This document shows, one piece after another, positions 4,203 to 8,693 of a stretch of DNA of 64,000 nt. The stretch comes from Nitrosopumilus sp. Its GTDB lineage: Archaea; Thermoproteota; Nitrososphaeria; Nitrososphaerales; Nitrosopumilaceae. The stretch is from contig OZ243974.1 of NCBI GenBank assembly GCA_965214775.1, forward strand, positions 128,001-192,000, written 5' to 3'. Under the pieces are notes generated by a model. It was not told the origin of the DNA. It searched no databases and was given only the letters and a program-made list of their open reading frames with translations. Every line of letters starts with the position of its first letter. Within the stretch, counting starts at the first letter, position 1. The position numbers and the translations under genes were made by a program.

Positions 4203-4293
4203 GTAAGAGTTTACCCCTCAGGCGACATTGCTGGCCGGAGCCTTCATGATCACACCTGCTGTGCCGTATCTCGGGGGAGGGGTAAACTCTTAC
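4203..4293. mobile_element. MITE family A copy 1 (91 bp)
   Basis: TIR GTAAGAGTTTACCCCT/AGGGGTAAACTCTTAC; 9-bp TSD AGTATTCCC at 4194-4202 and 4294-4302. Confidence 0.9.
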
Positions 4294-4561: not shown

Positions 4562-4743
4562 GTTCAGCACAAAGGGTAGCCTGCGGCAGACTCCTTTGAC
4601 AATATGGGATACCGCATACCGCAGCTGTCAATAGACTTTATGCGTAATTGGTTCAGATCTAGGATTATTACGAACAAATTCGTCTCATTCAGATCGATTA
4701 CGCATAAAGTCTAATGAGTGCGTTCAGCACAAAGGGTAGCCTG
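4562..4743. repeat. 22-bp direct repeat pair
   Basis: GTTCAGCACAAAGGGTAGCCTG at 4562-4583 and 4722-4743, bracketing a MITE B copy. Confidence 0.85.
4632..4713. mobile_element. MITE family B copy 1 (82 bp)
   Basis: 17-bp TIR TAGACTTTATGCGTAAT; near-identical inverted copy at 19537-19618. Confidence 0.85.
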
Positions 4744-4942: not shown

Positions 4943-5271
4943 TATTTGATCATAGTTTGCTAATTTCGAATCAACTCTCAGTAAAACTAGTAGAAAAGAG
5001 TGAAGCTTAATCCATGAACAACAATGTGTCTCAATGTAATTGACAGGCAAATCTTGGAAAAAATGTCCAACAGGTTAGGTTTGCCAACAAGATTGGAATC
5101 ATACCAGCTCCAAAGAAAGCTCAGGATACTGGGAATTGACATGTCTGCTTAAGATATTAGCGAAATTATCAACACCATAAAACCTGTAATTAAAGATACA
5201 GTTCTGTGGTTCTGTGTAAGATTGGTGACCTAGAATGCGGATATTCTCTGAATTGAGATTTTATTTTATGC

Positions 5272-6393
5272 CTAGACAGAATACTTGCTTAGCGAGGCAT
5301 TCTGGATGATGGTCTTCCACTTGTTGATGCCGTCCACGACAATCAAGGATGCCTCCGCAGGCGTCTTTCCCTCCAGGCTTCCGTGCTTTTTGGTGTAATT
5401 GTAGTAGACCCTCATTCCGTCAAGTATGGCCGTATCCATCTTCTTGAGGCCCCTGAACACCTTCTCGCGGTCTCTGATCTCGCCGTTGAGCCTCTCCATC
5501 CTGTTGTTGTTGTCCCGGTCTCTTTTTCCTGCCAGGTGGATATGTCTTACGTGATTCGTACCCTTTCCGAATACCCTCCTTGAGGACTTGGCATATGCCG
5601 GCAGGCCGTCCGTGATGAAGTTTCTGGGGCTTTTTCCGGTATGTGATTTTGTCAGTTGTAATAGACTGTCCGCATTGTGCTGGAACTTGTTGTCTGCCAG
5701 GTCGGAGGCCAGCCAGTAGCGCGTATCGTCATCCATCGAGGCGAATAGATAGCACTGCCTGCCGCTGATTTTCACCCATACCTCGTCGGCCCGGAACCAG
5801 CTGCCGACCCGTGGAACGATTCCGTTGAGGTATGTCGATGTCATCCTGGAATAGTCTCTAACCCAGTTGTATACCGTCTTGTGGCTTACACTGATTCCAA
5901 GCATCTCGTAATGGTTGGAGATGTCACGGACGCTCATCCCCGTATAATACATCTGCAACGCGCCCGTTATGATGGATTCGTCAAACCTCCTGTTTTCGAA
6001 TCCAAAGTTTGCAGTAAACCTTCTCTTACAGTCTTTACACTTGAACATCTGCATTGTAGAGCTTTTGTTCTTCTTTAATCCCTTCCTGACGATGTTGCCA
6101 GAATCGCAGAACTTGCACAGGTTAAGCCTTGACCTTTCAATGATTCTAAACCCGTCGTGTCCGAACACGTTTCTTCTGACATACTCCAGTATTACCTTGA
6201 TGTGCTTGCAGTCCGATTTTCTGCTCCGGTGGTCCGGACACTCACAGACAAGCCCGCTGCCCGTCCTAGATACGGTATAGAACTTGGATGGATCTGACTG
6301 GGATCTGACCCTGAAATCATTCGTACCAATGATCTGGGTGGCGTGACCCGGAGTCTCCATGATCTGTTTTGCACGTCGGTCTCTTGCGTTCAT
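5272..6393 (-). CDS. IS6-family DDE transposase with N-terminal SWIM finger and Zn ribbon
   Basis: CECPDH..CKH (SWIM), CKFC..CKDC, HTH (SHKTVYNWV), RADEVWV / FITDGL / NNRMERLNG; GAGGAGG RBS upstream. Confidence 0.9.
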   Translation of the reverse strand: MNARDRRAKQIMETPGHATQIIGTNDFRVRSQSDPSKFYTVSRTGSGLVCECPDHRSRKSDCKHIKVILEYVRRNVFGHDGFRIIERSRLNLCKFCDSGNIVRKGLKKNKSSTMQMFKCKDCKRRFTANFGFENRRFDESIITGALQMYYTGMSVRDISNHYEMLGISVSHKTVYNWVRDYSRMTSTYLNGIVPRVGSWFRADEVWVKISGRQCYLFASMDDDTRYWLASDLADNKFQHNADSLLQLTKSHTGKSPRNFITDGLPAYAKSSRRVFGKGTNHVRHIHLAGKRDRDNNNRMERLNGEIRDREKVFRGLKKMDTAILDGMRVYYNYTKKHGSLEGKTPAEASLIVVDGINKWKTIIQNASLSKYSV

Positions 6394-6434
6394 TCACATC
6401 CCTCCTCGAAAACTAATATAGAACAAAAAAGATG

Positions 6435-6519
6435 CGGTGGGTGTGGGATTCGAACCCACGAAGGCTTTCCACCTTGCAGGTCATAAGCCTGCCACTCTAA
6501 CCGACTAAGTGAACCCACC
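6435..6519 (-). tRNA. tRNA, anticodon UAU (Ile by anticodon), class II long variable arm, G73 discriminator
   Basis: GGTGGGT/ACCCACC acceptor; ACTT/GAGT D-stem with A14 G15 G18 G19 A21; GCAGG-CTTATGA-CCTGC anticodon arm; AAGGTGGAAAGCCTTC variable arm; GTGGG-TTCGAAT-CCCAC T-arm. Confidence 0.9.
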
Positions 6520-6529
6520 ATGCATTATA

Positions 6530-6572
6530 TTATACGTACGTTTATTTATACCTAGCTCTTATACGTACGTAT
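6530..6572. promoter_or_regulatory. TATA box for the tRNA flanked by two operator-like repeats
   Basis: minus-strand TATAAATA at 6543-6550, about 25-30 bp before the tRNA; TTATACGTACGT at 6530-6541 and 6559-6570; ATACGTACGTAT palindrome at 6561-6572. Confidence 0.6.
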
Positions 6573-6589
6573 GGTTTTTATACATCTTC

Positions 6590-6766
6590 ATGGTATACGA
6601 CATATTGACGCGATGGAAAAAGAACGAAACCGAGTTTTCCGTAAAACTCTCGTTTGATGGAAGAAACAGCATGTCATGCAGGATACCGAAACCCATTCTG
6701 GAAATGCTCGGTGAACCAGAGTCCATCACGTTCCGAATCAAAAACAACAGGATTGTGGTGGATTGA
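6590..6766 (+). CDS. AbrB/MazE/SpoVT-like small DNA-binding protein
   Basis: 58 aa from ATG 6590; SMSCRIPKPILEMLGEPESITFRIKNNRIVV fits the swapped-hairpin pattern. Confidence 0.7.
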   Translation: MVYDILTRWKKNETEFSVKLSFDGRNSMSCRIPKPILEMLGEPESITFRIKNNRIVVD

Positions 6767-6816
6767 TATGAGCGCCGAAACCACTAACCCACCCCCCGGA
6801 TGGAAAAACCGAATCA

Positions 6817-7398
6817 TCATGCCCTGGTCCATTCTATATGTCCGTTTACACCATGTTTGTCATAGGTTTTCAAAATATCGTCACAGAACTTGGCCAATGC
6901 GTAATCGTTGACCTTTTTTGATCTGGCCAGTAGGTTAACAAACAATTTTTTTGCGGTTTCCGTCTGGTTGTAGTTTTTCTTTTTGAAGTTGTGTGCCGCG
7001 CACAATACCTGCCCGTTTTCCACCGTTGACTCCCCACCCTTGTCTCTGGGTTTTATGTGATCGATATGCAGCTTTACACCGTCTCTTTCGCCCTTGCCAC
7101 AAACAACGCATTTGTGTTGGTCTCGTTCCAAGATTTCTGCCTTCTGTTTTGACGTGAAATTTTGCAATTTTATTGCGTCCTGTGGGTTGTAGCGGTAAAC
7201 TCCGGTGTTTACCTTGGTCAGAACACCTTCCTGGTGCAGGCTTCTTATCTGTCTATCCGGATCACGGAATACCCTGCCTGTACGCTCGTTATATTCTGAG
7301 ACTGCCCAGTCCACAATCTCCGGATGTTTTATGCTGCGATTCGGGTTGTTCCTGTAATACTCCAGGATTACGTCACGCTGGGTAACCGTGTCTGACAC
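6817..7398 (-). CDS. HNH endonuclease, putative restriction endonuclease
   Basis: CVVC...LHIDHIKPRDKGG...NGQVLCAAHNFKK; overlaps the methyltransferase stop. Confidence 0.85.
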   Translation of the reverse strand: MSDTVTQRDVILEYYRNNPNRSIKHPEIVDWAVSEYNERTGRVFRDPDRQIRSLHQEGVLTKVNTGVYRYNPQDAIKLQNFTSKQKAEILERDQHKCVVCGKGERDGVKLHIDHIKPRDKGGESTVENGQVLCAAHNFKKKNYNQTETAKKLFVNLLARSKKVNDYALAKFCDDILKTYDKHGVNGHIEWTRA

Positions 7399-8184
7399 AC
7401 CTCCTTTTCTATTCGCTTTTCTGCAAGGCTGTAATACTCGTCAACTAGTTCTATCCCCACCGACCTGCGGCCGTTTTTCATGGAGGCAACTATTGTCGTG
7501 CCGGAACCGGCAAACGGGTCAAGTATGACGTCATCAACATATGAAAACAGCTTGATGCATCTTTCTGGCAGTTCCTCCGGAAACGGCGCCGGATGCCCGT
7601 TCTTTTTTGCACCTGGAAACGTCCACATGCCGTTTGTCCATTCGATGAACTCGTTCCTTTCGATTGTACTTATTCCTCTGCGGTCACGTTTCCACTCGTC
7701 CTTGTAAAGTACGATTATGGCCTCAACAGGTGCTATCACATGCGGTGCAGAAGCCGACAGCCACGATCCCCATGCCGTCCTCCTTGATATGTTGCCCTCG
7801 TTCCAGACTATTGTTGCATGGTATTTCCATCCTGCATCAAGAGCTATCTTTGTCAGGTCGGCACATGTGGGCCTCTTTCCCTGCTTGTTCTTGTCCAGAC
7901 CAATGTTAAGACAGAATCTGCCCGTTGAACGTGTCCAATGAAGTACATTACTAATCCATTTTTCTGAGAATTTCAGGTATCTCTCATAGGATATGCTGTC
8001 ATTGCACCCCCCCCCCACCTTCATAATCAAGGCCTACGTTGTAGGGAGGTGATGTCACGGTAAGATCTACTGAATTGTTTCGAATTGTCGATTTTTTGGT
8101 CGTATCCCCTCTGACTAGCCTGTATTCAGGTTTCTCCACAAAACCCTTTTTGGTTTGTGTTTTTTTAATCCTTGGCTTTGTCAA
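7368..8184 (-). pseudogene. beta-class N4C/N6A DNA methyltransferase, frameshifted at a G10 tract
   Basis: TSPPYN in ORF 7999..8184; HPAPFP and ILDPFAGSGTT in ORF 7368..8030; removing one G at 8007-8016 joins the two frames. Confidence 0.88.
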
Positions 8185-8237: not shown

Positions 8238-8320
8238 TATAGCAACGGGCATAAGTCTTTGAGTCAAAGTAGGTCATAACTACGCGTAAAAAACCTCAAT
8301 TATTTCTGCTCGTTGCTATA
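8238..8320 (+). mobile_element. MITE family E (about 83 bp including TA flanks), inside the IS6 element
   Basis: TATAGCAACG..CGTTGCTATA ends; 7 copies in window. Confidence 0.9.
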
Positions 8321-8610
8321 CAACTCCCATTCCACATAGTTGCTTTTCCTGATCGCATCCGTGACCCTCCTTGCAGAGAACGCCTCACTAAGTAAAAATT
8401 TCGTCTAGTCGTAAAAATCGAATCTGAAGAAGATCCACATTTCAGGTCTCGAAGATTACATAGAATCTAGAATACTCCTGCCTTATCAAGCCGATCTCGG
8501 AAGCGTTCACATTCTAGGTCACCAATCTTACACAGAACCAGTTCTGTTTATCAGAGGGAGATACAATTTGAGAAGACATATCAAAACATTAAGAGTACAT
8601 GAGTGTCATG

Positions 8611-8693
8611 TATAGCAACGTTCACAAATAATTGAGGTCTTTTACGGGCAATCTGACCATGTTTTGACTCAAAGACTTCTGCTCGTTGCTATA
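8611..8693 (-). mobile_element. MITE family E, divergent subfamily
   Basis: same TIRs; internal sequence matches copy 47079-47161. Confidence 0.85.

Follow-up and report, generated by a model that had tools for sequence, protein, structure and literature searches.

A class II tRNA with a probably serine-type body and a UAU anticodon, carried by an IS6-like transposon of Nitrosopumilaceae

The window described here is a stretch of 64,000 nucleotides from Nitrosopumilus sp. (contig OZ243974.1, positions 128,001 to 192,000), whose genome (G000) is complete at 2.83 Mb in one contig with 47% G+C. Within it lies an IS6-like transposon that carries a class II tRNA gene with a UAU anticodon, and this tRNA and its surroundings are the subject of this analysis. 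In the whole 64 kb ARAGORN makes one tRNA call, with anticodon tat and minus-strand coordinates 6434-6519, and Rfam RF00005 gives a full-length match at 6435-6519 on the same strand with 59 bits against a gathering cut-off of 29. The locus is composed as follows, in window coordinates.

5200-5207, no strand: left copy of the 8-bp target-site duplication AGTTCTGT, from comparison of the flanks
5208-5237, plus strand: left terminal inverted repeat, 30 bp, GGTTCTGTGTAAGATTGGTGACCTAGAATG, from its inverted match to the right end
5272-6393, minus strand: DDE transposase of 373 amino acids with an N-terminal zinc-binding part, from Pfam DDE_Tnp_IS240
6394-6434, minus strand: spacer between tRNA and transposase, with a T6 run, a TATA-like box CTATATTA and GGAGG ahead of the ATG
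6435-6519, minus strand: class II tRNA with anticodon UAU (plus-strand 6483-6485), G37 and G73, from ARAGORN, Rfam, sequence and fold
6520-6589, no strand: divergent promoter region, in which the 12-mer TTATACGTACGT occurs twice and the tRNA has a TATA-like box
6590-6766, plus strand: small protein, 58 amino acids from the ATG at 6590; homologues begin at the TTG at 6602 (MTRWKK..)
6817-7398, minus strand: HNH endonuclease of 193 amino acids, transposon cargo, from Pfam HNH (3.2e-9)
7368-8030, minus strand: type II N6/N4 DNA methyltransferase of 220 amino acids, transposon cargo, from Pfam N6_N4_Mtase (4.3e-35)
8510-8539, minus strand: right terminal inverted repeat, 30 bp, from its inverted match to the left end
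8540-8547, no strand: right copy of the 8-bp target-site duplication AGTTCTGT, from comparison of the flanks

The tRNA is 85 nt long and folds into a five-arm cloverleaf with a minimum free energy of -37.2 kcal/mol (z = -3.97), which none of 200 shuffled sequences equals. Its acceptor stem has 7 bp (GGUGGGU/ACCCACC) and its T stem 5 bp closed by the loop UUCGAAU; U8, A14, G15, G18G19 and C48 are all kept in the sequence. The anticodon stem GCAGG/CCUGC carries the loop CUUAUGA, which supplies U33, the anticodon UAU, G37 and A38, and the variable region AAGGUGGAAAGCCUUC is 16 nt long with a stem of 4-5 bp. Position 73, the discriminator, is G, and the gene encodes no CCA. Directly 3' of G73 is a T6 run (a plus-strand A-run at 6424-6429), and 5' of the gene a TATA-like box, TATAAATA on the minus strand (plus-strand 6541-6550), lies about 23-30 nt ahead of G1. 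Each structural detail listed in the first-pass annotation of this DNA (an 85-nt cloverleaf with the invariant bases, a TATA box and a T6 run) is found in the sequence, and ARAGORN, Rfam, the fold and the sequence agree with it that this is a genuine class II tRNA with an isoleucine UAU anticodon, G73 and G37.

The UAU anticodon is neither an error nor a private mutation, because it is shared by a second copy in G000, by copies in two other genomes and by Logan contigs. The second G000 copy, at 597064-597149, is 94% identical and has the same loop with the variable arm re-paired. A BLAST search of 101 genomes of the same family added one further full-length copy, from another genus (G080), which is 95% identical, has an unchanged loop and replaces G5-C68 by A5-U68; a BLAST search of 401 family genomes added a copy in G641, only 77% identical, with a different variable arm and the loop still CUUAUGA. 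The anticodon stem of this last copy reads UCGGG/CCCGA against GCAGG/CCUGC in the window, with two pairs changed on both sides. Logan contigs X5, X6 and X8, from three other studies, cover positions 6481-6487 without a listed difference, and one Logan contig holds the A5-U68 variant of the G080 type. The proposed check that homologues retain UAU together with compensatory stem changes was thus positive in both G080 and G641.

Searches by covariance model and BLAST of the own genome, of 151 and 401 genomes of the family and of 151 genomes of the phylum, together with exact-pattern searches of 401 genomes of the order, yielded 21 alignable class II tRNAs of this type from at least seven genera of Nitrosopumilaceae, plus truncated or damaged copies. 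The tRNA, described at first pass as a chimera, is therefore not singular; it is one member of a family, whose anticodons are GAA (7), UAU (4), GAU (4), UAA (2), GAG (2), CAG (1) and CAA (1). A35 and A38 are present in 21/21, G73 and a purine at 37 in 20/21 each, and U33 in 18/21. Across the 21 members 97.2% of the cells of the paired columns hold standard pairs, against 37-49% with slid partners, and none of 500 shuffles reaches the observed figure. Double-sided changes occur in 21 of the 26 pairs, among them 5/5 in the anticodon stem and 5/5 in the variable arm, and all five helices covary; MAFFT followed by RNAalifold on nine members gave compensatory change in 18/27 pairs. These patterns argue for an intact tRNA shape under selection, with the anticodon and variable arms included, and covariation in those two arms speaks for selection beyond that on a processing signal.

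The family is patchily spread: nine genomes in the BLAST search of 401 have a match to the tRNA plus its spacer, after seven matches in genus g24 were set aside, two of which were seen to be native Leu(CAA) while the others look alike. Copies in different genera reach 95% identity, a sign of horizontal spread. In four members, L151 (G014), L239, L251 (G063) and L159 (G000 2238951-2239026), position 37 is followed by about 14 extra nucleotides, ..CUGAAG[CGGUUGCCUCAGAG]A.., an insert that looks like an intron; ARAGORN does not call these members. Class II G73 tRNAs with leucine anticodons (UAA, CAA, UAG) also occur without recognisable flanks of the insertion sequence (IS) type, namely L197/L198 (G065, G478), L174 (G041), L162 (G059) and G000:C1:1744619-1744714; if G73 means serine, these would read leucine codons as serine. 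A further locus, G000:C1:302585-302666 on the plus strand (L199), matches the family model with 41 bits and is not called as a tRNA by ARAGORN. Matches of about 75 bits and 84 nt in G077, G092 and G093 were taken for native tRNA-Ser, from their resemblance to L169-L171, and nothing concluded here draws on them.

Which amino acid the tRNA accepts was approached with two home-made covariance models, one for native tRNA-Ser and one for native tRNA-Leu, each built from five sequences. The window tRNA scores 67.5 bits on the serine model and 48.4 on the leucine model, and the serine model scores higher for 21/21 of the odd tRNAs, with differences from +1.7 to +29.6. Turned around, a model of the odd family finds Ser(GCU) as its top native match in the own genome, at 72.7 bits, and in the 151 genomes of the phylum all 11 out-of-family matches to which loci were given are native tRNA-Ser (10 GCU and 1 GGA). 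The tRNA carries G73, G30-C40 and G1-C72; the five native leucine tRNAs have A73, and their variable-arm signature CUYWYAGGRGUU is absent from its arm. According to the available portion of PMC9976931, archaeal leucyl-tRNA synthetase (LeuRS) requires A73 and a variable arm of defined sequence, G73 counts as an antideterminant for the LeuRS of H. volcanii, and both G73 and G30-C40 are determinants for seryl-tRNA synthetase (SerRS) in M. barkeri. By these features (7/5 acceptor and T stems, long variable arm, G73, G1-C72 and G30-C40) the body is serine-type. The anticodon itself lies outside the serine boxes (NGA, GCU), and it is the only part that fits tRNA-Ile, which has a class I body, A73 and A37 (bearing N6-threonylcarbamoyladenosine, t6A) against the long arm, G73 and G37 of the window tRNA. 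The body had been left at first pass as leucine- or serine-type; the serine half of that description is favoured by the models and by the native relatives, and the leucine half is not. Charging by SerRS is thus the best prediction, extrapolated from other archaea, as G73, G30-C40, G1-C72, the lack of the leucine arm sequence, the serine-model scores and the relatives all agree. A Ser(GCU) ancestor could have given GAU by a C35-to-A change, with one step more giving UAU or GAA.

The tRNA is dispensable for standard decoding in its host, because the TiaS gene (727859-728200), a tRNA(CAU) gene some 560 bp from it (727225-727299) and a complete native set that includes Leu(UAA) are all present; the suggestion that the tRNA serves to bypass TiaS is accordingly unneeded. 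ARAGORN with introns allowed finds 57 tRNA genes in the genome, which has one SerRS and one LeuRS gene. We considered the odd tRNA as a substitute for an absent native Leu(UAA) and rejected this when an intron-bearing Leu(UAA) with A73 was found at about 1565150-1565271 on the minus strand; it has two introns, one in the D-arm region and one after position 37/38, and had been overlooked by ARAGORN and Rfam until BLAST with other leucine tRNAs recovered it. The genome also encodes two full-length isoleucyl-tRNA synthetases (IleRS) whose proteins are 88% identical, at G000:C1:1984520-1987894 (minus) and 2233982-2237257 (plus), the second about 1.7 kb from a truncated IS-borne copy of the tRNA. 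A tie between this duplication and the tRNA was rejected, since a single IleRS is present in 10/10 other genomes of the family, six of which carry such tRNAs (G080, G641, G676, G432, G059 and G415) and four of which were found without it.

The tRNA is a passenger of a 3,332-bp IS6-like transposon of Nitrosopumilaceae. The ends of this element match as inverted repeats over 31 bp with zero mismatches (right end 8510-8540), and the 8-bp target duplication that flanks them has the length typical of the IS6 family; with both at its ends the transposon must have moved as one unit with the tRNA inside, so that the transposon-borne character proposed at first pass is upheld. The transposase matches Pfam DDE_Tnp_IS240 at 2.3e-14 (54.2 bits against a cut-off of 27), scores 123.2 bits with the NCBIfam IS6 model NF033587, just below the cut-off of 125, and is 83% identical to the transposase beside the second G000 tRNA. 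On the minus strand the genes run methyltransferase, HNH nuclease, tRNA, transposase, with the 58-amino-acid open reading frame between on the plus strand. The methyltransferase matches PADLOC MTase_II with 247.8 bits and the HNH protein matches PADLOC REase_II weakly (2.6e-6). The two G000 tRNA loci share 84% identity across window positions 5296-6801, that is, the transposase, the tRNA and the small open reading frame, and the second locus is without the HNH and methyltransferase genes. By tblastn, HNH was found in none of 23 related loci and the methyltransferase only in L002, at 29% identity. Linkage to a restriction-modification pair, which the first-pass annotation took as a hint of defence, therefore does not hold as conserved context; the partners kept with the tRNA are parts of the IS itself: a small AbrB/MazE-like gene, seen at 14 loci, the promoter and the transposase.

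Five more copies of the inverted repeat occur in the genome, of which four form two pairs, each with its own 8-bp duplication, and one is lone. The paired repeats bound elements of 6.35 kb (G000:C1:1032247-1038596) and 2.4 kb (1293462-1295829), IS6-like and without tRNA or small regulator. The larger carries genes for a 361-amino-acid protein with an HNH-like C-terminus, a 273-amino-acid methyltransferase-like protein with an NPPF motif and a 707-amino-acid protein, identified by eye from the translations, and these look like defence cargo; it also contains a tandem repeat coding for (SGVWCLV)n at 1034433-1034834. In the smaller, 5' of the transposase at G000:C1:1294380-1294470, there is an 8-bp stem GTGAGGGC...GCCCTCAC, after which come C, an oligo-T run and the spacer known from the other copies; this structure, which occupies the position of the tRNA, may be a gutted tRNA remnant. 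The intergenic DNA around the window transposon is made up of interspersed repeats of about 80-95 nt that resemble miniature inverted-repeat transposable elements (4203-4293, 4632-4713, 8238-8320, 8611-8693 and others), each present in dozens to more than 100 copies genome-wide at 75-99% identity. An integrase attachment-site remnant was also considered and rejected: there is no integrase, and the 3' fragments of the tRNA (G000 2238951-2239026; L153) bear the same downstream spacer and are therefore truncated copies of the element.

Comparison of copies with and without the tRNA locates the gene precisely. In tRNA-less copies a single promoter region lies between the small AbrB/MazE-like gene and the leaderless transposase gene, which point away from each other; within it a TATA box is followed after about 22 nt by the ATG of the transposase. 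The tRNA-bearing copies have the same promoter as far as ..AT, and G1 of the tRNA then stands where the former start codon had its G, which puts the tRNA, on this alignment, at the start site of the element's promoter in a minority lineage of the IS. A related spacer (YTATATTAAT.TTCGAGG) together with an oligo-T run follows G73 in most family copies; L003, L156 and L161 have no clear TATA-type spacer after the tRNA. Two copies of the palindrome-containing 12-mer TTATACGTACGT, at 6530-6541 and 6559-6570, stand on either side of the TATA box of the tRNA, and the repeat core ACGTACGTATA is common to the window and to the tRNA-less loci L201, L204 and L205. Association with a transposase start extends to another kind of element: in G478 two class II G73 tRNA(GAA) genes, L167 and L194 (G478:C13 about 1619977-1620066 and 1523880-1523969), lie directly upstream of a different transposase type with an N-terminal zinc ribbon (..ELFEMFPDDKTAE..), which we take to be IS1595-like, and have a similar TATA-containing spacer.

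The small protein is likely an AbrB/MazE/SpoVT-like DNA-binding regulator of the IS, and the 12-mer repeats are its candidate operators. Its consensus, MTRWKKDETEF..PKPI.E.LG.P.S..F.IK, is encoded divergently from the tRNA, on its upstream side, at 14 loci, the one in the window among them, and a hidden Markov model of 11 homologues finds exactly three copies in G000, each beside an odd class II tRNA. Searches of Pfam, NCBIfam, PADLOC and PDB sequences gave no match. The protein has 483 relatives in the protein collection, and among the 120 listed every organism name is Nitrosopumilaceae or Thaumarchaeota, with one UniRef name reading AbrB/MazE/SpoVT. The AF2 model has a pLDDT of 73.6; among the 24 Foldseek matches shown, all with E > 1, 18 are MazE, VapB, AbrB, SpoVT or the C56/C68 proteins of pSSVi/pSSVx, including all of ranks 1-13. 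Obligate pairing of the small protein with the tRNA was rejected: although 3/3 copies in G000 adjoin one, neither ARAGORN nor the family model finds a class II tRNA in any of 30 metagenome loci holding the small protein. These loci show that the small protein belongs to the IS and not to the tRNA, and the transposase is present in 12 of the 16 of them put through tblastn. A viral origin was likewise set aside, as a single viral contig encodes the small protein and no viral contig was found with a UAU class II tRNA of matching T-arm type.

We favour, with rather less than even confidence, the reading that this is a promoter-captured and probably serylated missense tRNA that reads AUA weakly. 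The element's promoter, probably controlled by the AbrB-like repressor bound at the TTATACGTACGT repeats, would drive transcription of the tRNA, which would be matured with 1-methylguanosine (m1G37) in place of t6A37. The single host SerRS would charge it, and the serylated product would compete weakly with the native agmatidine-bearing tRNA-Ile2 at AUA codons and insert serine. The transposase gene lies behind a short spacer that has a TATA-like box to itself. Other family copies, whose anticodons are GAU, GAA or leucine-type, would act alike at other hydrophobic codons. As for the gain to the element, the likeliest options are a conditionally harmful payload, addiction-like or stress-linked, or a tolerated selfish passenger.

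Several observations weigh against this proposal. G37 next to a U36 anticodon bars t6A37 and so should weaken the reading of AUA. AUA is also frequent, at 19.7 per 1000 codons or 30% of isoleucine codons in 545 long open reading frames, so that efficient insertion of serine would harm both the host and the element's own genes, and the AUA codons of the element align with isoleucine or valine in homologues. A search for RNA runs that contain the stretch listed none, which counts neither for nor against expression. The score of 67.5 bits on the serine model is far below the 92-109 bits of native serine tRNAs, to which no other member of the family comes near either, and native leucine tRNAs reach 60-65 on it, which describes a third kind of class II tRNA, nearer to serine; acceptance by SerRS is itself an extrapolation from euryarchaeal and other model systems. 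Pairing in the 21-member set is favoured by its alignment having been fitted to the model, and decayed or truncated copies with a 6-nt loop, C33 or broken acceptor pairs are on record (L153, L159, L160, L239, L241 and L251). Finally, six allo-tRNA(UAU) species were inactive in translation in E. coli, according to the accessible part of PMC5389517.

We also considered a private recoding of the transposase and rejected it: the eight AUA columns of UAU-bearing copies are mostly isoleucine or valine in homologues, never serine, and two of the eight include leucine, asparagine or glutamate. Nor do the phenylalanine codons of the GAA-bearing transposase copy show a pattern of serine or leucine positions.

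The strongest competitor, possible if on balance unlikely, is that the tRNA-shaped RNA serves the IS as a terminator, an insulator or a signal for processing by RNase P and RNase Z and not in translation, thereby lowering or uncoupling transposase expression and leaving the anticodon free to drift. The exact and conserved position at the transposase start, the T-run and conserved spacer with a new TATA-like box, the related tRNA(GAA) before another kind of transposase in G478 and the variation of anticodons among copies all speak for it, as do the failure of the tested allo-tRNA(UAU) species to translate, as far as the available text of that study goes, and the cost that a missense tRNA for a common codon ought to carry. 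For processing enzymes, however, the acceptor and T domain is mostly enough, yet 100% of the cells of the anticodon stem are paired, with 5/5 pairs covarying, the variable arm covaries in 5/5, and the loop keeps seven nucleotides with U33, A35, a purine at 37 and A38; the keeping of these parts points to selection on the whole tRNA, including those read by SerRS and the ribosome. A more aggressive version of serine charging is a repressor-controlled toxic tRNA that accepts serine and is aimed at the hydrophobic codons AUA, AUY, UUY and CUN, where replacement by serine does proteins the greatest harm. Loss of a labile AbrB/MazE-like protein, stress or infection would derepress the promoter and lead to proteome-wide mistranslation of isoleucine, phenylalanine and leucine as serine. 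If true, this RNA would act as a toxin by way of the genetic code, in addiction, abortive infection or transposition-coupled stress, and would be the first natural deliberate-mistranslation module in archaea. We regard it as doubtful; its attraction comes from yeast, where tRNA-Ser with a GAA or GAU anticodon was among the 11 most depleted of 64 variants (PMC6125640, in the portion available), and from the two of six allo-tRNA(UAU) variants that were lethal to E. coli (PMC5389517, likewise).

The remaining explanations concern charging by another synthetase, defence or decay. The tRNA could be charged with leucine, like the nematode nev-tRNA(UAU), giving a mild isoleucine-to-leucine change at AUA and making the sisters with leucine anticodons spare tRNA-Leu. 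The loop CUUAUGA and the Leu(UAA) loop CUUAAGA, the latter present in L174 and L197, differ at a single base, G37 is leucine-like, every family anticodon is a leucine anticodon or one step from one, and nev-tRNA(UAU) is leucylated in vitro (PMC3333845, PMC4300185, in their available text). G73 in 20/21, against A73 in all five native leucine tRNAs, makes this improbable, all the more with G73 as an antideterminant for archaeal LeuRS and the native arm signature absent (PMC9976931, as above), with the leucine model under the serine model for 21/21 and with the out-of-family relatives being tRNA-Ser. Also quite improbable is a defence decoy or spare that soaks up an anticodon nuclease or, with the restriction-modification pair, harms AUA-rich invaders. 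The type II methyltransferase and HNH nuclease on the same transposon, the sister transposon with nuclease and methyltransferase genes predicted by eye and the small neighbour protein with its weakly antitoxin-like fold (Foldseek E > 1) lend themselves to such a role. Set against these are the lack of HNH in 23 related loci by tblastn, with the methyltransferase in L002 alone, the regular presence of the small protein in tRNA-less copies, with the tRNA in 0/30 metagenome loci, and the failure to find this tRNA type in viral contigs; no PIN, PrrC-like or other anticodon nuclease gene adjoins the tRNA, and for the decoy role suggested at first pass nothing was found in support. A hitch-hiking tRNA pseudogene, functionless and on its way to decay, would account for the truncated or damaged copies (the six named above) and the patchy distribution. 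It is nonetheless very unlikely, given that all stems of the window copy are paired, that all five helices show compensatory change across several genera, and that UAU and an identical loop are kept at 77% overall identity. Least probable of all is an isoleucine-charged true decoder of AUA that makes TiaS dispensable: the isoleucine anticodons UAU and GAU make up 8/21 of the family and the genome has two IleRS genes, 88% identical, but a class II body with G73 and G37 contrasts with A73, A37 and the short variable loop of tRNA-Ile, TiaS and the adjacent tRNA(CAU) are present, the same body bears GAA and leucine anticodons, and IleRS is single in 10/10 other genomes checked, six of them with such tRNAs.

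The window tRNA and its element have counterparts among known systems. A minor tRNA-Ile(UAU) in Nanoarchaeota, Korarchaeota and some bacteria allows AUA to be read without agmatidine or lysidine; it has a class I body and isoleucine identity, whereas the tRNA described here is set apart by its long arm, G73 and G37, and its host retains TiaS. IS6-family elements with passenger genes are known, as are toxin-antitoxin pairs within Tn3-family transposition modules. The present element resembles these in its DDE transposase, inverted repeats, 8-bp duplication and cargo with a small regulator at the transposase promoter, and differs in the added zinc-binding N-terminus, the IS6 score of 123.2 against 125 and a promoter-proximal cargo that is a tRNA and not a protein toxin. 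The tRNA-Ser(CAG) of the CUG-clade yeasts is a natural anticodon variant of tRNA-Ser with a fixed codon reassignment.

In the yeast tS(NNN) library, likewise, a SerRS blind to the anticodon means that a serine body with GAU, GAA or leucine anticodons mistranslates; the most harmful anticodons included GAA and GAU, and the effect of G37 variants was mostly less severe than that of A37 variants (PMC6125640, in the portion available). These yeast cases are laboratory constructs or a fixed reassignment, whereas the window tRNA is a natural passenger of a mobile element whose charging is predicted. The nematode nev-tRNA-Ile(UAU) and nev-tRNA-Gly(CCC) are class II tRNAs (PMC3333845, PMC4300185), and the former shares with the window tRNA a class II body, a UAU anticodon that belongs to neither leucine nor serine, conservation within a lineage and the potential for missense decoding. 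As far as the available text describes them, nev-tRNAs are eukaryotic, chromosomal and leucylated in vitro, whereas the window tRNA points to serine by its G73 and body and resides on a prokaryotic IS. The closest likeness is to the bacterial allo-tRNAs, which have serine identity and non-serine anticodons, UAU being the most frequent, and lie near transposon and toxin-antitoxin genes (PMC5389517, in its accessible part, for this and the following comparison). They share with the window tRNA a long variable arm, serine-type identity elements, a non-serine anticodon, neighbours of the transposon and toxin-antitoxin type, common damaged copies and doubtful use in translation. They differ in having 8/4 or 9/3 acceptor and T stems where the window tRNA has the canonical 7/5, and in being bacterial, mainly from Acidobacteria and soil metagenomes, where it is archaeal; the window family, moreover, occupies a defined site, the transposase start of one IS family, and has only NAN anticodons. 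The window tRNA is thus an archaeal counterpart of these mismatched tRNAs of the allo-tRNA and nev-tRNA kind, and none of the papers listed by the searches of open-access literature described an archaeal or insertion-sequence-embedded case.

Natural tRNAs whose body and anticodon do not match are rare, and they are raw material for codon reassignment and for regulated mistranslation. The tRNA described here provides an archaeal example with the canonical fold and a whole family confined to hydrophobic NAN codons, with a defined genetic address, the start site of a promoter that the transposase and a small regulator have in common, and with horizontal spread between genera. It carries a practical warning, since calls of 'tRNA-Ile(UAU)' and 'tRNA-Phe(GAA)' in Nitrosopumilaceae can be such passengers. 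It bears on the tie of allo-tRNA(UAU) to transposons and toxin-antitoxin genes, which is suggested but left unexplained in the accessible part of PMC5389517, and it raises the questions of whether the anticodon blindness of SerRS is exploited in nature and whether mobile elements carry translation-altering RNAs as payloads.

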